Of a stretch of DNA of 32,762 nucleotides, positions 2,228 through 21,133 are shown piece after piece. The DNA comes from Candidatus Nanoarchaeia archaeon (lineage in GTDB: Archaea; Nanobdellota; Nanobdellia; SCGC-AAA011-G17; JACPNG01). How positions within the stretch are numbered: position 1 is the stretch's first letter; each line of letters starts with the position of its first letter. Under the pieces are notes generated by a model, which had not been told where the DNA came from, did not search any database, and saw nothing but the letters and a program-made list of their open reading frames with translations. A program made the position numbers and the translations under genes. The stretch lies in contig JASLOB010000022.1 of assembly GCA_030745695.1 (NCBI GenBank), forward strand, positions 1 to 32,762, given 5' to 3'.

Positions 2228-3939
2228 TATTTAACAGACTCTGTCTTTGGATGCTCATGTCCAACTTCTTTTCTTTCTTTCAAATGTTTAATTTGTTTAT
2301 TTCTTTCTTTTAGAAATTTATCTAAATTAAATCCATACCTATCAATTATATTTGACATATATTTTCCACCTAAGAAGTGAGGCATCAAAACATATGTTAC
2401 TCTTTTATTGTACAATCCATAAGCCTCATCAATATGGTGAGATACAACAATAATGATTGCTTTTCTATTTACTTTACGAATCTTTTCAATTAATAATGAA
2501 TTAGTCTCATAATATGGAATAGTAGAAACAGCCATCTTTATTTTATCTAAATTTAATTCATCTAAAAATTCAGGATCATCTACATCTCCATAAATACATT
2601 CTACCTTTCTATCTGTTAATCTAGAAATAATATCTGGATTGTAATCAACAACAAGAAACTTCTTTTTTAGTCTTTGAAATGTTTTTACAAAATCATATCC
2701 AACTCTATTGTAACCAAATAATATGATACTATATTTTTTAGATGATTCTTTAATTTTTTTAGGTTGTTTTCTTTCAAATATTGATAACATATTTGAGAAA
2801 TAAGGATATAATTTTTCAGAATAGATTATTAGATAAGATGAACCAGCTATTGTTATCAACCCTGTTAATGTAATTAATGATACAATATCATTTTGTATAT
2901 GTTCTGATCTAACCCCTAAAGCTATCACAATAAAAGAAAATTCGCTTATCTGTGCTAATGTCAATCCAACTAGAAATCCATTTCTTTTTTTATGTCCAGT
3001 CAATCCCATAAAAGTAAGAATTGTTAAAGGTTTTATGATAAAGATGAATAATGATAATATAAGAGCAGGAATTAATATTTTAGTTAATTCTTCAAAAGCT
3101 AATTGTGATCCTAAGAGTACAAAAAATAAAATCATAAAAAAGTCTCTTAATGGACGCATTTTAGCACTTATCTCATGGGAATAAGGAGACACAGATAAAG
3201 TAACTCCTGCAATTAAAGCCCCTATCTCAATTGATAAATTTAAAAATTGAAATAATATTGATAATCCAAAACCCCATGCAATTGAAAACAAAAATAAATA
3301 TTCTTGAGACTTTGCAAAGAATTTAGCTAAATGTGGAAGTATATATTTACTAATTAGTATTAATAAAACAATTATTATGGATCCAGTTATGATTGTTTGT
3401 GTTGCTAATTCACTTATTCCAATATTATTAGAAATTGAAGATATTACAATTAAAGCTAATATTGCTATTAGATCCTGAAGTAATAATATTCCAATTGAAA
3501 TTTTTCCATATAATGTTTCTAAATCTTTTTTATCTGATAGTAACTTCATGATCACAATTGTACTACTAAATGTTAAAGCAATTGCAACATATAATGCAGA
3601 AATAGATGGAAATCCAAGTAATTTAGTTATAACAAAACCTAATATAAAAGTAATGGATATCTGTCCTAATCCAGCTATTAAAGCTACTGGACCAACCTCT
3701 CTTATTACTTTTGGAGTTAAGTTCAACCCAACTATAAATAATAATAAAGCAATTCCAATTTCAGAAAATAATGATATTGTATCTGTTGATTCAACAATAT
3801 TAAAAACATATGAACTTACTAATATTCCAGTAAGTAAATAACCAATAATTGCTGGTTGTCTTAATAATCTAATTATTCCTGTAGTTACAGCCGCTATGAC
3901 TATAATCATACTTAACTCAAAAAATAAATTTGATGCCAC
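2224..3939 (-). CDS. CPA2 cation:proton antiporter (Kef-type K+ transporter) with C-terminal TrkA-N/KTN domain
   Basis: Multiple TM helices, FSSTIVIMKLL, LLLQD, LAQISEFSF, and KTN motif ILFGYNRVG...YGDVDD. GTG start. Confidence 0.9.
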   Translation of the reverse strand: MASNLFFELSMIIVIAAVTTGIIRLLRQPAIIGYLLTGILVSSYVFNIVESTDTISLFSEIGIALLLFIVGLNLTPKVIREVGPVALIAGLGQISITFILGFVITKLLGFPSISALYVAIALTFSSTIVIMKLLSDKKDLETLYGKISIGILLLQDLIAILALIVISSISNNIGISELATQTIITGSIIIVLLILISKYILPHLAKFFAKSQEYLFLFSIAWGFGLSILFQFLNLSIEIGALIAGVTLSVSPYSHEISAKMRPLRDFFMILFFVLLGSQLAFEELTKILIPALILSLFIFIIKPLTILTFMGLTGHKKRNGFLVGLTLAQISEFSFIVIALGVRSEHIQNDIVSLITLTGLITIAGSSYLIIYSEKLYPYFSNMLSIFERKQPKKIKESSKKYSIILFGYNRVGYDFVKTFQRLKKKFLVVDYNPDIISRLTDRKVECIYGDVDDPEFLDELNLDKIKMAVSTIPYYETNSLLIEKIRKVNRKAIIIVVSHHIDEAYGLYNKRVTYVLMPHFLGGKYMSNIIDRYGFNLDKFLKERNKQIKHLKERKEVGHEHPKTESVKY

Positions 3940-4111: not shown

Positions 4112-4636
4112 TTATATAAATAATAAAATAGAAATTAAAGATAACAATCCAAATATAGTAAATCCTATAACTAATTTATTAATATTAAGTCTATATCTAA
4201 AGAACAATACCCCAAAAATAAAATAAGAAAATAATAATTCTCTTGTAAAAAATCTAGCTATACTACTCAATCCTAAAAATTGTAATGGTGTAGCTCCTAA
4301 AAATACCCAAACTATAACTGAGATGTAATCTATTACTGCATCTGAAATCCAACCATAAGCAAAAAATCTTAATCTTATGAATTTAAACCAAAAAAATGTA
4401 AATACTAATCCTATAACTAATTCTTCTAAAACTCCCAAAAACGGAAAAGTATTATAGATTTTAACTGTTTCATAACTAACTATAAACCCAACTGAATTTG
4501 TTTTAAGGAAAGTTACATAATACAAAACTTGTCTAAGTATGTTAGGAGCTAGAATAATTAGAAAAAATTTGAATATATCTACTTTATCATACTTAACTAA
4601 AGTCATACCTAAAAGATTTTTTAAGTCAAAATTCAT
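4112..4636 (-). CDS. Hypothetical multi-pass membrane protein
   Basis: 174 aa, about 5 hydrophobic segments, overlaps the upstream gene by 4 bp. Confidence 0.7.
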   Translation of the reverse strand: MNFDLKNLLGMTLVKYDKVDIFKFFLIILAPNILRQVLYYVTFLKTNSVGFIVSYETVKIYNTFPFLGVLEELVIGLVFTFFWFKFIRLRFFAYGWISDAVIDYISVIVWVFLGATPLQFLGLSSIARFFTRELLFSYFIFGVLFFRYRLNINKLVIGFTIFGLLSLISILLFI

Positions 4637-5115
4637 TTTTTCTTAAATAAACTAGACAATCTCTCAATAGATGATTGAATATTTGAATCTAAAGTGTCAT
4701 ATGATTTCGATTTTCTCTTTGTTCCTAAAACAACTTTAAGGGGTTTTTTCTCTACTTTTTGTGTTTTTTTCTTCTTTTTATACTTAAATGAATTTATTAA
4801 AGATACTGCCACTAAAATGAGTAACACTCCTATCAATCCGTATAACACAAAAATAAAATTAAAATCTCTTTTTTGTTTTATAGTTTGACATTCATTATCA
4901 CATAAATAACTTTTACATTCATAATCAAACAAACAAGGATCTCCATCATTTTTTGCTGTTTCTATTTTTCTATTTGAACTACAATAGATTTGTTCCCCAT
5001 ATTCTGATGTTAATCTTTGTGTTCCAACTTTAACACATTTATCATTATACTCACAACCTTCACATTGGGCATACACAAATGGAATTAATAATAACAAAAT
5101 TATCAATATTTTCAT
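4633..5115 (-). CDS. Secreted, membrane-anchored cysteine-rich protein
   Basis: Signal peptide, an 8-Cys module (CEGC...C...YC...C..DYECKSYLC...C), one TM helix and a basic cytoplasmic tail. Confidence 0.75.
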   Translation of the reverse strand: MKILIILLLLIPFVYAQCEGCEYNDKCVKVGTQRLTSEYGEQIYCSSNRKIETAKNDGDPCLFDYECKSYLCDNECQTIKQKRDFNFIFVLYGLIGVLLILVAVSLINSFKYKKKKKTQKVEKKPLKVVLGTKRKSKSYDTLDSNIQSSIERLSSLFKKK

Positions 5116-6955: not shown

Positions 6956-9598
6956 TTAAAACCAACTATTTGCTTTTTTAAATCCTTTATTTATTTGATC
7001 ATTAGTCCAACCTTTCTGCAATAATATCTTCTTTATATTCACATCATCCATCTTAGATTTTCTACATCTTCTAATATATTTTTTGACTACTTTAATATTT
7101 TGTCCTTTAGTTGGAACATCTATCTTTATCAACACCCATTTTTGTTCCCATTCTATCTCTTCAAAAGCATATCTTATTTGGCGTTTATTCCATCCTTTTC
7201 GTAATAATGTTTTAGATATATTCTTCTTTTCTATATTTTTACTTAATGAATTTTTGATAAATTTCTTAACATTTTCTAAATCATTTTTAGCTTTAAATGG
7301 ATTTTTTCCTTTAGTTAATTTTCTAAAATCTAATTTTCCTTTGTAAAAATTAAGATATATTACTCCAACAAGTATTACAATAATGGCTAATATTATCCAT
7401 AACCAAGAAAAACTTCTATTTTCACAGTCTATTGGACAACTTATTTTGTCTTCAAAAGGAATAGAACAAACTTCATCTCCACAAGTATGTGTTTCTTCTT
7501 GAGGTTCTTGTATAATTGTTGTTTCTACATCTAAAGGCACAATAATTGTCTTTAAATTTAATATTTTTTCAATAAACTCTCCATCTATCACATAACTAAA
7601 TTCTACATCACTATTCTTAACTAAACTAGAAAACTTTTTCCTTAACAAAGGATCTCTTTCTACAACTTCGAAATCATCAATGAAATTTATATTATCTACA
7701 TCATTTGTTATACTTTTAGGAATCTTCTCATAAACATAAACATCATCTAAATTTTCTTTTGGATTAATTATTTTTTTTATTAAAGTTTTTTTAACTTCAT
7801 TTCCAGAATTTAAAATTGTTTTTATTGTTGTAGCTTCTACATTAACATTAACTTTATTTTGTAACTCATAAACAGATATTTTGTCATTAGTATCAACAAT
7901 ATTATTTAAATCACTTGGTCCTACAACTGAAATATCTTTTAATATTTCAGTTTCTTTAATTGATTTAGGAAGATTATTCTTAAAAGAATTTATTTTATTT
8001 CTAAGTTTTTCAGTTTCATTTTCTACTTTATCCAAAGAAATATTTGATAATGAGTTTAATTCATTCTTATATTGATTTAGTTGGAATAAAGATTGATCTA
8101 TATCATATTCAAAATATCTTAAAAATTTATTGTTTTTTATTTGATTTAAATCATTTTTAATATCGGATATTTCATCTTCTAAATTAGATGAATCAAACTC
8201 AAATAAATTAATATTTATACTTTTAGCAATATCAGGCCCTAATGTAGCCTTTAAAACTTCTGATTTATTTTGTAATGTAAAATTAAAAGGTTTAAGAGAC
8301 AAACTAATTGAAACATTATCAACAGATTTTCTATTTATTTCATATATAACTCCTGGAAAAGTTATTAGATCATGAAATAGATTATATTCAACCCCTCCAA
8401 TATCTACTAATAGATTAGTTAATACTACTTTTCCTTTAGAATTAGAACTTACAGATATGGGAACTATACAAAAATTATCATCAGGAATCCTACAAAGACT
8501 AACTTCTTGTTCAATGGAATTTTTTAAAAGATTTGTAGAAACATTCACTTTAGATAATTTTATTGGTGTGGTAAAAACAACATTATAATTTGCACCTCTG
8601 GCTTTTATAAAATAATCAAAAAATGATTGTTGTTCACAACTAGTTGAATCTATACCACATTGAAATGAGTTAATTGATTCACTAAAATCAATTGCTATTC
8701 TATAAGCCCCTTCAGAATTCTCATTACGTAAACAAACTAAAAACTCTCCCTCTATTGCTTCTGAAAATTTTAAACTACAACTATTAAAAGAAAAAGAAGT
8801 TCCAGGTTCTGGTAAATCACAATTATTTCCTCCACCTAAAATTTGATTTGATAAAGAGTCATAGGATAGTATAGAAGCTGTTATGTTCCCTCCAATACTT
8901 GTATCATCAAAAAGTCTATAATTAGCATTTATCTCAAAATCTCTTGATGAAGGTAGATCTATTAAACTACAATGATAAGTTTGAGTATCATTCAATATTA
9001 CAGTAGCAGGAACAACATCTAAATCTAAAGTATCTGATTTTACAAATTCATTTTTCAAACCAGTCTTTTCTCCTAGATACCTCCAGTCTACATCTCCATC
9101 ACTCCCTACATCAAAAGTTAATGAAGAAGGATAACTTCCATCAATAACTTCACTAAATATATCCATATCAATAGAACTAATTGAAACTCCAAATGGCAAT
9201 CTAAATCCTATTAATCTTTCACCTAATTGATTATAAATCAATATTTTAGAATCACTAGGATTTATTGCTTTAGTCTCATCATCAGTATTAGCATAAGTTC
9301 TCCCTAATTGAAAAAGCACAGTTCCAATATTCTTGTTATACATAAAACTTCCAAATTTTATAGTAAGATTTGTATCTAATTTAATTGGTCCATTAAAATT
9401 AATAGTTAAATTTCCATCTATAATCTCATCAGTTTTGTAAGATTCTCTATTAAGTCCTATATTTAAACTAGGATTTATATGTTGTAAAGTAGTAAAACTA
9501 GTAAAAGTGTTGTCCATAGACATAAAAAAACCAAAAGCTAATAAAAAAACTAAGAGAACAACCTCTAATCTATGATTATTTACATCACCTCTTTTCAT
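6956..9598 (-). CDS. Large membrane-anchored surface protein (880 aa) with Cys-rich motif and duplicated C-terminal helical repeat
   Basis: N-terminal MKRG plus hydrophobic segment, many N-x-S/T sequons, CGDEVC...SCPIDC motif before a TM helix, and two LL.KGW...QI repeats. Confidence 0.75.
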   Translation of the reverse strand: MKRGDVNNHRLEVVLLVFLLAFGFFMSMDNTFTSFTTLQHINPSLNIGLNRESYKTDEIIDGNLTINFNGPIKLDTNLTIKFGSFMYNKNIGTVLFQLGRTYANTDDETKAINPSDSKILIYNQLGERLIGFRLPFGVSISSIDMDIFSEVIDGSYPSSLTFDVGSDGDVDWRYLGEKTGLKNEFVKSDTLDLDVVPATVILNDTQTYHCSLIDLPSSRDFEINANYRLFDDTSIGGNITASILSYDSLSNQILGGGNNCDLPEPGTSFSFNSCSLKFSEAIEGEFLVCLRNENSEGAYRIAIDFSESINSFQCGIDSTSCEQQSFFDYFIKARGANYNVVFTTPIKLSKVNVSTNLLKNSIEQEVSLCRIPDDNFCIVPISVSSNSKGKVVLTNLLVDIGGVEYNLFHDLITFPGVIYEINRKSVDNVSISLSLKPFNFTLQNKSEVLKATLGPDIAKSININLFEFDSSNLEDEISDIKNDLNQIKNNKFLRYFEYDIDQSLFQLNQYKNELNSLSNISLDKVENETEKLRNKINSFKNNLPKSIKETEILKDISVVGPSDLNNIVDTNDKISVYELQNKVNVNVEATTIKTILNSGNEVKKTLIKKIINPKENLDDVYVYEKIPKSITNDVDNINFIDDFEVVERDPLLRKKFSSLVKNSDVEFSYVIDGEFIEKILNLKTIIVPLDVETTIIQEPQEETHTCGDEVCSIPFEDKISCPIDCENRSFSWLWIILAIIVILVGVIYLNFYKGKLDFRKLTKGKNPFKAKNDLENVKKFIKNSLSKNIEKKNISKTLLRKGWNKRQIRYAFEEIEWEQKWVLIKIDVPTKGQNIKVVKKYIRRCRKSKMDDVNIKKILLQKGWTNDQINKGFKKANSWF

Positions 9599-9635: not shown

Positions 9636-10409
9636 CTACTTTACATTAATCTCTAAAATAGCATAATTATCTATTTTAGTTCCTTTAAAGAAAATTTTTA
9701 CATTAGTTATTTCAATATTATCAAAAGTCTTAGTTTTCCCTTCTAACAACCTTTGTTTAAGATCTTCATCTATATCTAATAAAATAACATTCTCTTTCTC
9801 TTTAAGAATAGATCTTATTATTATCTGTTTTCCACCAATATTTAATACATCCTCAGTCTTAACTAAATAACTATTTGTTTCTAAACCAAATTCTTCTACT
9901 TTTATACTAATACTTACATCATCACCCACTCCAATAATAGTATCAATAAAAAGGCTTACGTCTCCTACAATATCTTGTGTTTTTGTTCCATAAATTGTTG
10001 TTAATTTTCCTCCAACATCAAATACTGCATTTAGATTTTCTCCCACATCTAAACTTATTAATTTTATTTCTACATTATTAAATTTAATAGTATCACCTAT
10101 AGATAATTGATAATTTCCTTCTTCTAATTTTTCTGTTTCTAACACAGGTTCTTGAATCTCTTCTTCAACTTCTGGTTCTTCAACAATTATCTCTTCAACC
10201 TCTAACTCTTCTAAAACCAGAGTCTCTTGAACTTTTATTTCATCTTTATCACAAATAGAATTATTACTTTTATCTAAACAACATTCTCCCTCTTTATATT
10301 CAAAATAAGGATCTTTACAAAAACTTGATTCTTTGATTACTGTCTCTTTAACACAAGCGCTAATAAATAATAAACTTAAAAGAAATAAAACAATTGTTAA
10401 TCTTTTCAT
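9636..10409 (-). CDS. Putative lipoprotein / surface protein with acidic linker
   Basis: Signal ending FISAC, CC-D...C motif, Glu-rich linker, repeated beta-rich units. Confidence 0.7.
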   Translation of the reverse strand: MKRLTIVLFLLSLLFISACVKETVIKESSFCKDPYFEYKEGECCLDKSNNSICDKDEIKVQETLVLEELEVEEIIVEEPEVEEEIQEPVLETEKLEEGNYQLSIGDTIKFNNVEIKLISLDVGENLNAVFDVGGKLTTIYGTKTQDIVGDVSLFIDTIIGVGDDVSISIKVEEFGLETNSYLVKTEDVLNIGGKQIIIRSILKEKENVILLDIDEDLKQRLLEGKTKTFDNIEITNVKIFFKGTKIDNYAILEINVK

Positions 10410-14266: not shown

Positions 14267-15124
14267 TTAATATGGATTTTCAGATGTTGCTCCTTTAATA
14301 TCTAACCAATCTCTATTTTTTCTAAATAATAGATTAGTATTCCATATTGCTTCAAGAAGTTCAACAGAAATATTTAATTCTTTCGCAAGAAAAGTTGAAG
14401 CAAGAAGATCTTTTGGAAAGCATTTACCCCCAACACCATAATCTCCATCAGGTCCTGGAACTTCAGTATTAGTCCCAATTCTTTCATCAAGTAAAATTTC
14501 TTTTCTTAAAGTAGAATAATCTATACCTTGTTCTTCACATATCTTACAAATCACATTAGCAACCATTATTTGTCCAGTTAAAGTAACATTTGCTGCATAT
14601 TTTATCATTTCAGCTGTTTTTCTATTAACAATAGAATAGTGTGCATTAGGAAATACAGGTTTGTATATCTCCATTAATAAATCCTCACTCCATTTATCTT
14701 CTACTCCTAAAACTACTCTATTTGTATTCTCCATATCATCTATTGCAGTTTTTTCTCTTAAAAATTCAGGGTTAACTGCAAATTTAAATGGGTATTCCTT
14801 ATCAAGTTTATCTGTAGAACCAGATACAGCAGTAGATTTTATAACAACAAGAAGACCAGAAGGATCTCTTTCTATCTCTTCTACTTTATCTTGTAAAGAT
14901 TGAAGAGAATTATGGATAGGAGAATAGTCTATCTCTCCACTTTCTTTCATAGGTGTAGGCACACAAATAAAAGTAGCTCTTGCCTCTTTAGCAATCACTT
15001 CTAAATGTCTAGAGGTATTATAAGGTGATTTAAATTTGTCATAAGGAAATACATTATGGGCTTTGTCTAATACATGTTTAGTTGCTCCACCTACAAATCC
15101 AACTCCTATTATTCCAACTTTCAT
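14267..15124 (-). CDS. UDP-glucose/GDP-mannose dehydrogenase family protein, short form lacking the C-terminal domain
   Basis: GVGFVG, ICVPTP, IKST, NPEFLRE, AEMIKYAAN, GGKCFPKD; only 285 aa. Confidence 0.87.
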   Translation of the reverse strand: MKVGIIGVGFVGGATKHVLDKAHNVFPYDKFKSPYNTSRHLEVIAKEARATFICVPTPMKESGEIDYSPIHNSLQSLQDKVEEIERDPSGLLVVIKSTAVSGSTDKLDKEYPFKFAVNPEFLREKTAIDDMENTNRVVLGVEDKWSEDLLMEIYKPVFPNAHYSIVNRKTAEMIKYAANVTLTGQIMVANVICKICEEQGIDYSTLRKEILLDERIGTNTEVPGPDGDYGVGGKCFPKDLLASTFLAKELNISVELLEAIWNTNLLFRKNRDWLDIKGATSENPY

Positions 15125-16753: not shown

Positions 16754-17269
16754 TTAACTATTATCAATTATAAAATTAGCAGCATCTAACAAATCTTTAG
16801 TTATATAATCAGCTAATCTTTCCTTATTTTTGATTCCCAAAAATATGGTTCTACATCCAGCATTCTTTCCAGCCTCAACATCAGACAATTTATCTCCAAT
16901 CATCCAACTTTGTTTTAGACTTATGTTATGTTCTTTAGCACCTTTTAGAATATTTCCTGGATTTGGTTTCCTACAATCACAATTTTCTCCTGATTTATGT
17001 GGACAAAAGTAGATTCCTGTAAATTCTACTCCTTCATTCTTTAATTGAGAAACTAAATATTCTGTAAATCTATAATAATCTTCTTTTGTGAATACATTTC
17101 TTCCAATTCCCGATTGATTTGTTATAATTATTAGCTTATAATCTTTATCAATAAATAATTTTAATGCTTCAATAACATTTGGTCTTAATTCAAAGTCTTC
17201 TACTCTATAAACATCTATTTTATCTACATTTATTGTATCATCTCTATCAAGAAATATTGCTTTATTCAT
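16754..17269 (-). CDS. gmhB: D-glycero-D-manno-heptose 1,7-bisphosphate phosphatase (HAD)
   Basis: FLDRDDTIN, ITNQSGIGR, Zn motif CPH...CDCRKP, MIGDKLSD; adjacent to rfaE genes. Confidence 0.9.
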   Translation of the reverse strand: MNKAIFLDRDDTINVDKIDVYRVEDFELRPNVIEALKLFIDKDYKLIIITNQSGIGRNVFTKEDYYRFTEYLVSQLKNEGVEFTGIYFCPHKSGENCDCRKPNPGNILKGAKEHNISLKQSWMIGDKLSDVEAGKNAGCRTIFLGIKNKERLADYITKDLLDAANFIIDNS

Positions 17270-17753
17270 TTTTTATTTTCTCAATCAATTTTGAAGTAGA
17301 CATTCCTTCTTTTAGTTTTATGATATGTATTTTTCCACCATATTTTTTAACAATGGGAGACTCAATACAATCTTCTCCATATTCTGATCCATTAACATGA
17401 ATATTTGGCTTGATGGATTCAACAAATTTCAAACAATCTGTTTTATTAAATATTGTAACAAAATCAACACATTCAAATCCTGCTAACAACTTTGCTCTAT
17501 TTTTTTCATTGTTGTAGGGTCTTTTTTCAAAATCTTCATTATTCATTAATCTTTTCCATTCCCTAACTGAATCATCAGAATTAACTCCAACAATTAAAAT
17601 ATCTCCTTGTTTTTTAGCTTCTTCTAAAATATATAAATGTCCGATGTGTATGATATCAAAACTACCATTTATTGTAACTATAGTTTTTCCTTTAGCTTTT
17701 AATTCATCTACTAATTTAGAAATTTCTTCTCTAGACTTAATTTTACTTATCAT
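17262..17753 (-). CDS. rfaE2: Heptose-1-phosphate nucleotidyltransferase (HldE domain II / HldC)
   Basis: NGSFDIIHIGH, GVNSDDSV, RP, STSKLIEKI. Confidence 0.9.
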   Translation of the reverse strand: MISKIKSREEISKLVDELKAKGKTIVTINGSFDIIHIGHLYILEEAKKQGDILIVGVNSDDSVREWKRLMNNEDFEKRPYNNEKNRAKLLAGFECVDFVTIFNKTDCLKFVESIKPNIHVNGSEYGEDCIESPIVKKYGGKIHIIKLKEGMSTSKLIEKIKNE

Positions 17754-18714
17754 TTTTCATTGATTTTTCAATTTCAATAGTAGTTGCAGTTGATGTGCCA
17801 AATTTATTTACAACTATTCCTGCAGCATAATTTGCTAAGGTGATTGCCTCTTCCATATTTGCTCCAGAGGATAAAGCTAAAGTTAAGATAGATATCACTG
17901 TATCTCCTGCTCCAGAAACATCATAAACTTCTCTAGCTTTAGTTGGAAAATGTTTAACTTCATCACTAAAAAGGATCATTCCTCTTGGACCTCTTGTGAT
18001 CAATAAATCAGAATCAAATTTTTCTCTTAATTTATTTCCAACTTTATTAATATTATCTTCTTCTTTTCCAAAAACCTCTGCCATTTGACTTGCTTCTTCA
18101 TAATTTGGGGTGATTAAATTAACTCCTTTGTACAACTCTTTATTTTCAGGTTTAGGATCTACAACTAAATATTTATTTTTATCCTTGCATAATCTGATTA
18201 ATTCATCCATAACTTTTTTGTTGATTAATCCTTTTCCATAATCTGAAACTATTACAGAATCAATTTCTGGAACTATTTGTTTTATTTTTTTAATAGCTTC
18301 TTCTTCAATCTCTTCATTTATTGTATCCTTAACATCATAATCTATTCTCAATAATTGCTGATTATTTGCAACTACTCTTTCTTTTAGTATAGTTCTTCTA
18401 TTTGCATCTTTAATTAATAAATCTGTTCTAATTTTTCTAGAATTTAATTTGTTTAATAATATTTCAGCATGTGTATCTTCTCCTATGACTCCAATTATAG
18501 AAACTTTAACACCTAAACTAGCTAAATTATTAGCTGCATTAGCTGCACCTCCAGGAACATAATTTTCCCATCCTACATCTACTAGAGGAATAGGTGCTTC
18601 AGGAGAGACTCTAGAAACATCTCCAAAAACATATTTATCTAATATGATGTCTCCAACTACTAAAACTTTTTTTTCTTTAAATTTACTCATAATTTTAATT
18701 AAATTTTCTTTCAT
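17743..18714 (-). CDS. rfaE1: Heptose-7-phosphate kinase (HldE domain I / HldA)
   Basis: VVGDIILDKY, RVSPEAPIP, GGAANAA, SDYGKG, VDPK, DVSGAGDT. Confidence 0.93.
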   Translation of the reverse strand: MKENLIKIMSKFKEKKVLVVGDIILDKYVFGDVSRVSPEAPIPLVDVGWENYVPGGAANAANNLASLGVKVSIIGVIGEDTHAEILLNKLNSRKIRTDLLIKDANRRTILKERVVANNQQLLRIDYDVKDTINEEIEEEAIKKIKQIVPEIDSVIVSDYGKGLINKKVMDELIRLCKDKNKYLVVDPKPENKELYKGVNLITPNYEEASQMAEVFGKEEDNINKVGNKLREKFDSDLLITRGPRGMILFSDEVKHFPTKAREVYDVSGAGDTVISILTLALSSGANMEEAITLANYAAGIVVNKFGTSTATTIEIEKSMKNDK

Positions 18715-19058
18715 AATTCTAATTCATCTAAATTTATTTTTTCGCTCTCTGTTTTTCTATATGTATCTTCATCTTGATGTTGGGTTGAAAACTCAAATAT
18801 TTCAGAATTTTCTAATCCAGTAAATCTATGCCATTGTTCTGGAACTAAATGTTGTATATCTCCTTCTTGCATTATCCATTTTTTATCTTCTAATTCCATT
18901 AATACTCTTCCAGATTGGATGTAAAATGTTTCTTCTTTAATTTTATGTTTGTGCATACTCCCTCTAAATCCTTTTTTTAATATTAATTTTTTACCACAAT
19001 ACTTCTCATTATTTATAATCCAATGTTCTTCACCCCACATTTTAGGAACTATTTTCAT
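18711..19058 (-). CDS. Cupin-fold protein (mannose-6-phosphate-isomerase-like), first gene of the heptose operon
   Basis: PKMWGEE, metal motif SMHKHKIKEETFY, PEQWHRF, EFST; overlaps rfaE1 by 4 bp. Confidence 0.85.
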   Translation of the reverse strand: MKIVPKMWGEEHWIINNEKYCGKKLILKKGFRGSMHKHKIKEETFYIQSGRVLMELEDKKWIMQEGDIQHLVPEQWHRFTGLENSEIFEFSTQHQDEDTYRKTESEKINLDELEL

Positions 19059-19725: not shown

Positions 19726-20094
19726 ATGGATAAAATAGTAATTGGCGTCATAGAAAAAGTAAAAATTAAAGGTAAAACTACAATAGAAATGCTGGCTAAG
19801 ATAGATACTGGAGCCCAACATAACTCAATTAGTATGAAATTAGCATCAGAACTTAAATTAGGCCCAGTAGTAAGAACAGCTATAATTAAGAACGCGCATG
19901 GAAAAGCAGTTCGTCCAGTAGTAAAAGCAGTTATAGAAATAAAAGGGGAAAAAATAGAATCAGAGTTTAACTTATCAAATAGAGAAAATATGAAATATCC
20001 TATATTAATTGGAATGAGTGTGTTAAAAAATGGATTTTTAATAGATCCTTCTCAAGATAATTCAAAAGATGAAACTAGCAATAATAAGTCTTAA
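19726..20094 (+). CDS. RimK-associated retropepsin-like protease (RimB-like / 'ATP-dependent Zn protease' family)
   Basis: IGVIEKV, AKIDTGA, RPVV, LSNRENMKYPILIG; overlaps rimK. Confidence 0.87.
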   Translation: MDKIVIGVIEKVKIKGKTTIEMLAKIDTGAQHNSISMKLASELKLGPVVRTAIIKNAHGKAVRPVVKAVIEIKGEKIESEFNLSNRENMKYPILIGMSVLKNGFLIDPSQDNSKDETSNNKS

Positions 20095-21133
20095 AGGAGA
20101 AAGTAGTTCTAAGATAGCAGATGAAGCTAAAGAATTGTTTAAAGTAGTTGATAGATTAGACATTAGAAAGATAGAAGTCCATGCTACCTCAAAAGGATTA
20201 AATGTTTTGTATGAAGGAAAATCTATAGAAAAATATGATTGTATCTATGTAAGAGGGTCTCATAAATATTTATTGTTACAAAGAACACTAACAGAAGCTC
20301 TAAATAAAGAAGCTTATATGCCAATACAACCAAGTGCTTTTACTATAGGTCATGATAAATTCTTAACATTAGCTGAATTACAAAAAAATAAAGTACCAAT
20401 TCCAACTACATATTTAGCAGCAACTGTAGGTAGTGCAAAAAAAATATTATCAAAAATAAATTTTCCAATTATTATGAAATTATCTTCAGGAACACAAGGA
20501 AAAGGAGTTATGTCTGCTGATTCTCTACAATCTGCTAATTCTATATTAGATACATTAGAAGTTTTCAAACAACCATACATAATTGAAGAATACATAGAGA
20601 CAAATGCAACAGACATTAGATTAATAGTAGCAGGAGATAAAATAATTGGGGCAATGAAAAGAAAAGCTACTTCTGAAGAGATGAGAGCTAATATACATAT
20701 GGGTGCTATTGGATCTAATTTTGTTCCTAGTCTAGAGATTGAAGAAATCTCACTTAAAGCTGCAAAAGCAATAAAATCAGATATATGTGCTGTTGATATA
20801 CTAGAAGGATTAAAACCAATGGTAATAGAAGTAAATTTATCTCCAGGGTTAGAAGGAATAACAAAAGCAACTGGAAAGAACATTCCAAAGTTAATAGCTA
20901 AATTTTTATATGAAAAAACTAAAAAATTTAAATCTTCTAAAACAACTAAAGATTATAATGATGTATTAAAAGAGATAGATAATGGAAAAGAAATTATAAC
21001 TAACTTAAACATAAAAACTGGTAAGATAAGGCTCCCTGAAATCATAACTAAAACAACAAGGTTTAAAGATGATGATGAAGTCTCAATAAGTATAGATAAA
21101 GGTAAAATTATTGTGAAAAAAATCAATGATTAA
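20069..21133 (+). CDS. rimK: RimK-family ATP-grasp ligase with C-terminal AbrB/SpoVT-like extension
   Basis: HDKFLT, PIPTT, KLSSGTQGKGV, EEYIE, DIRL, RANIHMG, AVDIL, IEVNLSPGLEGI. Confidence 0.88.
   Translation: MKLAIISLKGESSSKIADEAKELFKVVDRLDIRKIEVHATSKGLNVLYEGKSIEKYDCIYVRGSHKYLLLQRTLTEALNKEAYMPIQPSAFTIGHDKFLTLAELQKNKVPIPTTYLAATVGSAKKILSKINFPIIMKLSSGTQGKGVMSADSLQSANSILDTLEVFKQPYIIEEYIETNATDIRLIVAGDKIIGAMKRKATSEEMRANIHMGAIGSNFVPSLEIEEISLKAAKAIKSDICAVDILEGLKPMVIEVNLSPGLEGITKATGKNIPKLIAKFLYEKTKKFKSSKTTKDYNDVLKEIDNGKEIITNLNIKTGKIRLPEIITKTTRFKDDDEVSISIDKGKIIVKKIND

Follow-up and report, generated by a model that had tools for sequence, protein, structure and literature searches.

ADP-heptose (ADP, adenosine diphosphate) is a building block of the lipopolysaccharide core and a donor for glycosylation. 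In the bacterial route to ADP-L-glycero-beta-D-manno-heptose, which comprises GmhA, either HldE or HldA together with HldC, GmhB and HldD, the first enzyme is the sedoheptulose-7-phosphate (S7P) isomerase GmhA, an alpha/beta protein of about 190 residues with the SIS fold that is itself metal-dependent. Here we analyse 32,762 nucleotides of DNA from a Candidatus Nanoarchaeia archaeon (GCA_030745695.1, contig JASLOB010000022.1; hereafter the window), in which an operon of this type is headed by a gene for a 115-residue cupin. We propose, with a probability of roughly 0.78, that this cupin is a metal-dependent S7P isomerase, non-homologous to SIS-fold GmhA, that replaces it at step 1 of the RfaE-type nucleoside diphosphate (NDP)-heptose pathway. 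ADP-heptose is also a potent agonist of innate immunity through the ALPK1 pathway (PMC11461863), and to tell which organisms produce it one has to recognise all four or five enzymes. NDP-heptose enzymes of archaea, viruses and eukaryotes were treated by Tang et al. in 2024, as conveyed in a commentary (PMC11461863). The archaeal pathway is therefore already known, and the new part is the cupin, not the operon. Full-text literature searches, in which Tang et al. was covered through the commentary and may itself mention cupins, found no paper linking a cupin to GmhA.

Several described enzymes bear on this proposal. The Thermococcus cupin phosphomannose isomerases (PMIs; 7zvm/7zvy) and the type II PMI domain (PF01050) are likewise single small cupins of about 105–115 residues, and they perform analogous aldose-ketose chemistry leading to the manno configuration. 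The Thermococcus enzymes, however, are 18–21% identical to the window cupin, whose heptose-linked family has its own 22-residue signature and heptose rather than mannose gene neighbours. The conventional phosphoglucose isomerase (PGI) has the SIS fold. For cPGI (PF06560), PMC7304191 describes a metal-dependent cupin that convergently replaces a conventional sugar-phosphate aldose-ketose isomerase; it differs from the window cupin in substrate and context. CapF- and RmlC-like epimerases share a similar cupin fold, and some relatives of the window cupin have, as they do, a short-chain dehydrogenase/reductase (SDR) as neighbour or fusion partner. Those enzymes act on NDP-4-keto sugars, whereas the phyletic pattern of the window family points to a first step that precedes the nucleotide. 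With GmhA itself the cupin shares its predicted reaction, place in the pathway, operon slot and fusion position (C-terminal to the kinase), and the two are mutually exclusive in genomes; they differ in that one is an alpha/beta SIS protein and the other a small beta-barrel cupin, with no sequence similarity between them.

The operon and its genes

The operon consists of four co-directional open reading frames (ORFs) on the minus strand, listed here in the order of transcription:

18711-19058, minus strand: cupin, 115 residues, single domain, candidate S7P isomerase (GmhA analogue); Cupin_2, 38.2 bits
17743-18714, minus strand: D-glycero-beta-D-manno-heptose-7-phosphate kinase (HldA / RfaE domain I type, PfkB family), 323 residues; TIGR02198
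17262-17753, minus strand: heptose-1-phosphate nucleotidyltransferase (NTase; HldC / RfaE domain II type), 163 residues; TIGR02199
16754-17269, minus strand: GmhB, heptose-1,7-bisphosphate 7-phosphatase (HAD-IIIA; HAD, haloacid dehalogenase), 171 residues; TIGR00213

Each gene overlaps the next, the cupin and kinase by 4 bp, the kinase and NTase by 11 bp and the NTase and GmhB by 8 bp, so that ORF coordinates and profile matches agree with the gene order and overlaps first read from the DNA in the initial annotation. The kinase matches TIGR02198 (rfaE_dom_I) at 375.9 bits, above the cut-off of 345, and PfkB at 162.7 bits, and shares 48% identity with its counterpart in a gmhA-type operon. For the NTase, TIGR02199 (rfaE_dom_II) is by far the best match, over the full length, at 151.4 bits (E 1.4e-44), below the cut-off of 181.5; CTP_transf_like follows at 58.1 bits. 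The fourth ORF scores 163.6 bits against TIGR00213 (GmhB), above its cut-off of 149.6. Together with a product user of glycosyltransferase family 9 (GT9; PF01075), the TIGR02198 and TIGR00213 matches are in keeping with an operon of the RfaE/HldE type. Contig 23 of this genome carries three GT9 heptosyltransferase-like genes with scores above the cut-off (115.8, 97.8 and 71.5 bits), so a consumer for the heptose product exists. Set against the bacterial ADP-heptose pathway, the operon has a kinase, a phosphatase and an NTase of orthologous type but a different first enzyme; relatives that carry the cupin add HldD and GT9. HldD was not found in the window, where the nearest SDR is GalE, about 2.5 kb from the operon and not adjacent to it; the product is therefore probably the D,D-heptose form.

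The initial annotation had reported no SIS-fold gmhA in the window, and this holds for the rest of the assembly as well. The assembly (546,515 bases in 35 contigs) has no match to TIGR00441 (GmhA) at E<=1 and none to the SIS family PF01380 at E<=0.01. The sole match to PF13580 (14.6 bits) was rejected as gmhA, as it falls within an IspH/LytB-like ORF. Since the assembly is 76.6% complete, the absence of gmhA from this one genome is weak evidence; an incomplete genome cannot prove absence, and a comparison across genomes is therefore needed. The IspH/LytB-like ORF, so described from its sequence pattern, is an observation in its own right (303 residues; G000 contig 7, L001:850-1761, minus strand): archaea normally use the mevalonate route, and an enzyme of the methylerythritol phosphate pathway such as IspH is thus odd in an archaeal genome.

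Distribution of the cupin and gmhA

We compared the two isomerase genes in an even sample of 301 genomes from the window's phylum (DPANN), 300 of them at >=90% completeness. Scores against the cupin profile (A1) were bimodal, with 19 genomes (one of them, G271, from unpublished data) at 134.6–196.4 bits and the next best at 95.2. Strong gmhA matches, defined as >=147 bits, occurred in 57 genomes and a weaker class of 71–127 bits in 24; the RfaE kinase was present in 72. No genome of the 301 carried both a strong cupin and a strong gmhA, and 18 of the 19 cupin genomes also carried the kinase. Among the 72 kinase-positive genomes, the cupin is present in 18, gmhA in 38 and neither gene in 16 (Fisher p=5e-8, with no correction for relatedness).

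The same alternation is found at close range. Among 41 close relatives of the window's genome, 11 have the cupin, six have strong gmhA (E<=3e-37, in frames of about 190 residues) and none has both; the 16 that are kinase-positive comprise 11 with the cupin, four with gmhA and one with neither. Both states occur inside each of four families (f30, f49, f50 and f86) and inside one genus (g13). In this genus one genome (G014) has the cupin, the kinase and an NTase-GmhB fusion, a second (G015) has the kinase only, and a third (G016) has gmhA followed by gmhB and the NTase, with a syntenic kinase that is 83% identical. An in-place swap was considered for g13 and rejected: synteny holds for the kinase loci, but no gene is common to the locus that carries the cupin in G014 and the one that carries gmhA in G016. 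This is a replacement at a different position, not the same one.

Bacteria provide an independent replicate. In an even sample of 151 Planctomycetota genomes, with gmhA called at E<=1e-20, the cupin is present in eight (152.8–164.7 bits); all eight have the kinase and none has gmhA, versus 118 of the other 143 that do. The 132 kinase-positive Planctomycetota comprise 109 with gmhA, eight with the cupin, 15 with neither and none with both. Species-representative genomes yielded 231 relatives, and among the best 80 of these 231 loci the kinase lies <=8 kb from the cupin in 29, a linkage seen in DPANN (18/25), in metagenome-assembled genomes labelled 'Methanosarcinales' (7/9), in the Candidate Phyla Radiation (CPR; 3/3) and in Bdellovibrionales (1/1), and in none of the Dependentiae (0/12) or Planctomycetota (0/20); at one locus, L112, the ORF caller used returned no cupin ORF. 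In 42 bacterial genomes with an unlinked cupin (Dependentiae, Planctomycetota and others) an RfaE-type kinase was found in 41, mostly in HldE-sized frames, and gmhA at E<=1e-15 in one (101.5 bits). Routine co-occurrence with gmhA, which the initial annotation had named as the finding that would tell against its reading, was thus absent, both genes in strong form being found together in 0/301 DPANN, 0/151 Planctomycetota and 0/42 further bacterial genomes.

Kinase-positive genomes with neither isomerase exist, and the absence of gmhA alone is therefore not diagnostic. Cases with a high-scoring kinase and neither strong gmhA nor cupin include G317, G101 and G181, also G044 and G054, plus the 15 Planctomycetota. 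They could reflect incompleteness, a divergent GmhA (G044 and G054 have SIS matches of 91–96 bits) or a third kind of isomerase.

The cupin also occurs in viruses. It was found in 35 phage records, all from marine cyanophages or marine viruses, at 40–48% identity. In the cyanophages S-SM2 and P-SSM2 the gene, annotated there as 'cysteine dioxygenase', has as neighbours genes for an NTase, a PfkB kinase and an HldD-like epimerase, as well as a gene of about 110 codons labelled 'phosphoheptose isomerase', a label repeated in a published genome note (PMC7378029). The genes so labelled encode products of about 103–114 residues:

P-SSM2, L044:4661-5005: 'phosphoheptose isomerase'-labelled gene, HAD-like
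S-SM2, L043:4676-5005 and 3035-3346: 'phosphoheptose isomerase'-labelled genes, HAD-like

We rejected these as GmhA, as they have no SIS match and match HAD phosphatases weakly (TIGR01689, 35 bits; HAD-IIIA); they look like minimal HADs and probably stand in for GmhB. SIS_2 has no match anywhere in the S-SM2 or P-SSM2 genome. Viral contigs yielded at least 585 relatives, and within 6 kb of the best 80 loci there are 50 with a kinase, 52 with an NTase and none with gmhA.

Gene order and fusions

Mapping of the loci by BLAST revealed several arrangements. The order of the window, cupin, kinase, NTase and gmhB, recurs (G000, G002 and G243-type loci). In other genomes the cupin is followed by an HldD-like SDR, the kinase and a GmhB-NTase fusion (G126, G072, G250, G108), or by an HldE-like kinase-NTase (G175). 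The gmhA-headed counterpart of the cupin-headed order is gmhA, gmhB and, further on, kinase and NTase (G021). Kinase-cupin fusions are present in G004, G027 and G097, and in G027 the pathway is reduced to two genes, a kinase-cupin fusion and then an NTase-GmhB fusion. Their architecture is that of kinase-GmhA fusions, which G177, G249, G133, G087, G199 and G163 appear to encode, as the kinase and GmhA matches share one frame of 506–527 residues. Among 51 family representatives longer than 190 residues the fused partner is a PfkB kinase in 21, an RfaE-type NTase in five, a HAD domain in two, and GT9, SDR, NTP_transferase and NUDIX in one each; the orders seen in the protein collection are cupin-kinase, kinase-cupin, kinase-NTase-cupin and cupin-HldD. 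A NUDIX-cupin fusion of 326 residues (P0147) belongs to the same cupin family; its NUDIX hydrolase may take NDP-heptose, the product of the pathway, as substrate.

GT9 heptosyltransferase genes flank the cluster in relatives. The SDR that adjoins or is fused to the cupin is HldD-like (TIGR02197 at 265–272 bits, and 210 in phage). With HldD already in the cluster in these relatives and in the cyanophages, only the isomerase step is left unfilled.

These arrangements bear on a different role for the cupin, that of a late tailoring enzyme, an epimerase or isomerase of NDP-heptose or an NDP-4-keto sugar that would work with an SDR partner in the manner of CapF or RmlC. The SDR gene that stands between cupin and kinase in one clade and the single cupin-SDR fusion would fit such a role, as would the structural closeness of the CapF cupin domain (Z 14.6–14.8). 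That SDR, however, is HldD-like rather than a 4,6-dehydratase, and in the known pathway HldD works without a cupin partner; the operon in the window has no adjacent SDR at all, and the commonest fusion partner is the kinase (21/51), not the NTase or the SDR. A tailoring enzyme should moreover co-occur with gmhA, yet it does so in 0/19 DPANN, 0/8 Planctomycetota and, with one weak match, 1/42 further bacterial genomes, and step 1 would then have no enzyme at all in genomes that bear the cupin. We regard a tailoring role as unlikely.

The cupin protein and its proposed reaction

The window cupin belongs to the cupin superfamily, matching Cupin_2 (PF07883) at 38.2 bits against a cut-off of 27.2. 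It matches cupin models only, and neither the GmhA family nor the SIS fold; there is no match to the cPGI family PF06560 at E<=0.01. The AlphaFold2 model is an all-beta barrel (pLDDT 95.8), and, ranked by Z, the Thermococcus cupin PMI 7zvy comes first among its structural matches (Z 15.4, root-mean-square deviation 1.5 A over 100 residues), the highest identity among them being 28%, to a D-lyxose isomerase. The family comprises 292 representative clusters at E<=1e-30. Its metal-site motif H-x-H...E...H, which corresponds to H36, H38, E43 and H77, is invariant in 47 of 47 aligned members, and in all 22 positions are invariant over these 47, including the metal site and K6, K23, K41, S91, T92 and R101. 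Members from Dependentiae, Planctomycetota, CPR and cyanophages, at about 45% identity, keep 21–22 of the 22.

Cupins that score 60–96 bits are found mostly alongside gmhA, in seven of eight cases in Planctomycetota and also in G235, a genome with strong gmhA whose distant cupin (89.8 bits) keeps 17 of the 22 residues and carries H36Q and R101G. On the loss of H36 and R101 in G235 these mid-scoring proteins were rejected as members and set apart as a different subfamily. The cupin of G005, a genome without gmhA, keeps 21 of 22.

Were the cupin to act as proposed, it would convert S7P to D-glycero-D-manno-heptose-7-phosphate, which the kinase would phosphorylate to the 1,7-bisphosphate, GmhB would hydrolyse to heptose-1-phosphate and the NTase would activate to NDP-heptose (NDP-D-glycero-beta-D-manno-heptose); GT9 heptosyltransferase-like enzymes, whose genes lie on another contig, would then use NDP-heptose for a surface glycan. 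The analogy with cupin PMI, PGI and lyxose isomerases suggests that H36, H38, E43 and H77 hold a divalent metal, which may polarise the oxygens at C1 and C2 of the sugar in its open-chain form; a 1,2-proton shift via a cis-enediolate would then yield the manno configuration, as in the conversion of fructose-6-phosphate to mannose-6-phosphate. The basic or polar residues K6, K23, K41, R101, S91 and T92 would bind the phosphate. In a bolder version of the proposal, suggested by the frequent fusion to a beta-specific kinase, the cupin would deliver the beta-anomer directly, or a different C2 epimer.

A rival reading is that the cupin is an ordinary PMI or another hexose-phosphate isomerase that happens to lie beside heptose genes, or that the whole operon makes NDP-mannose via mannose-1,6-bisphosphate. 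The Thermococcus enzyme heads the structural matches, MannoseP_isomer (20.5 bits) and GMP_PMI (TIGR01479; 20.6 bits against a cut-off of 372.95) match weakly, homologues are named 'mannose-6-phosphate isomerase-like' in some sources, and no S7P-forming enzyme was found in the window's genome. The kinase, however, lies above the equivalog cut-off for heptose-7-phosphate kinase and resembles its counterpart in a gmhA-type operon, and the cluster is accompanied by GT9 heptosyltransferases and HldD. The family moreover tracks the heptose kinase (18/19) and excludes gmhA, a pattern not expected of a general PMI, and a hexose-phosphate role appears quite improbable.

Weighing the assignment

The initial annotation's suggestion that the cupin replaces GmhA gains strong comparative support from several patterns, among them its exclusion of gmhA, its tracking of the kinase and its repeated fusion to that kinase, all of which are read from genomes.

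Several observations weigh against the assignment. Two genomes carry the cupin together with a weaker SIS gene (G250, 117 bits; G128, 87.5 bits), which lies in a separate cluster beside a GHMP kinase, and locus L081 holds the cupin cluster plus a second cluster of NTase, gmhA and kinase. In G030, which is 95% complete, the cupin (C1:77381-77731) and a 367-bit kinase (C12:2135-3067) are on separate contigs, and a search at E<=1e-15 recovered neither an RfaE-type NTase nor GmhB. No pathway gene lies <=8 kb from the cupin at 51 of the best 80 genome loci, and neither isomerase is present in 16 of 72 kinase-positive DPANN and 15 of 132 kinase-positive Planctomycetota. As relatedness among the genomes violates independence, p-values overstate the association. 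At the level of the protein, the matches to MannoseP_isomer (PF01050; 20.5 bits against a cut-off of 23.6) and Lyx_isomer (19 against 20.8) are sub-threshold, and Pac13, KdgF and CapF match the model within 1 Z of the top. Since non-isomerase cupins tie so closely, the fold does not discriminate function: the predicted structure confirms a minimal cupin and does not separate isomerases from cupins of other functions.

The supply of substrate is a further point of this kind. Neither transketolase nor transaldolase was found in the window's 76.6%-complete genome, so no source of S7P was located. In the phylum sample, 14 of the 19 genomes with the cupin encode transketolase, and the enzyme was not found in four gmhA-bearing genomes of the window's order (G019, G021, G096 and G121). 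The gap is therefore not specific to cupin carriers.

The clusters that hold the weaker SIS genes have a layout of their own. In G250 (L030:1205-6433) the second cluster comprises an SDR, an NTP_transferase, a family 2 glycosyltransferase (GT2), a GHMP kinase, a GmhA-like SIS protein, a GmhB-like HAD protein and a transaldolase; in G128 (L031:3547-5300) it is a GHMP kinase with the SIS gene. We take this layout to be that of a separate route to GDP-alpha-heptose (GDP, guanosine diphosphate), and the weaker TIGR00441 class (71–127 bits) may be the isomerase of such a GHMP-kinase-type pathway.

A sugar-binding, regulatory or accessory role for the cupin, with heptose-7-phosphate or an S7P-derived sugar supplied by a host or made by an unrecognised third isomerase, would suit the host dependence of DPANN archaea, Dependentiae and phages and the kinase-positive genomes with neither gene (16/72 and 15/132), which imply another solution or incompleteness, but is the most improbable of the alternatives, as the same exclusion is seen in Planctomycetota with genomes of free-living size (3.2–5.5 Mb), the four-ligand metal site and the 22 residues kept strictly across domains and viruses argue for catalysis, and the relative that co-occurs with strong gmhA, in G235, has lost H36 and R101.

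Implications

If the cupin is the isomerase, it probably represents a large, unnamed S7P isomerase family with which ADP-heptose synthesis would ordinarily begin in Dependentiae, in a block of Planctomycetota, in many DPANN and CPR members, and in T4-like cyanophages and other large viruses. Surveys based on GmhA would then miss these heptose producers, and an apparent hole in the pathway would be closed in several phyla and in abundant ocean phages. Misannotations that have spread would be corrected, namely the cyanophage cupin as 'cysteine dioxygenase' and the minimal HAD as 'phosphoheptose isomerase'. After PGI and PMI, a further conventional sugar-phosphate isomerase would have been replaced by a cupin, and at 115 residues the enzyme would be easy to test and to crystallise.

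Other features of the window

The archaeal origin of the window is backed by a PIN-ATPase-KH protein and a diphthamide synthase encoded in it, and the closest homologues are named Woesearchaeota. A scan for bacterial-type promoters was uninformative (45 sites against 47.2 expected); a TATA-like, AT-rich stretch lies directly upstream of the cupin start as a candidate element. Beyond the operon, on the same strand, are genes for an AI-2E-family permease, a phosphoribosyltransferase, a short nucleotide-sugar dehydrogenase-like protein and GalE. The dehydrogenase-like protein (14267-15124, minus strand; 285 residues), downstream of the operon between the phosphoribosyltransferase and GalE, covers positions 73–294 of a profile of 413 and lacks the C-terminal domain. 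Four minus-strand ORFs have no Pfam match at E<=1e-4, one of 880 residues (6956-9598), one of 257 (9636-10409) and two of 160–174 (4112-5115); genes for a GT1-like glycosyltransferase and a PIG-L deacetylase adjoin them, and their products may have a role at the surface or in glycans. Divergent from the heptose operon, at 19726-21133 on the plus strand, a 122-residue protein with a retropepsin-like or 'ATP-dependent zinc protease' domain overlaps the start of a 354-residue RimK-type ATP-grasp ligase, a pair that looks conserved.

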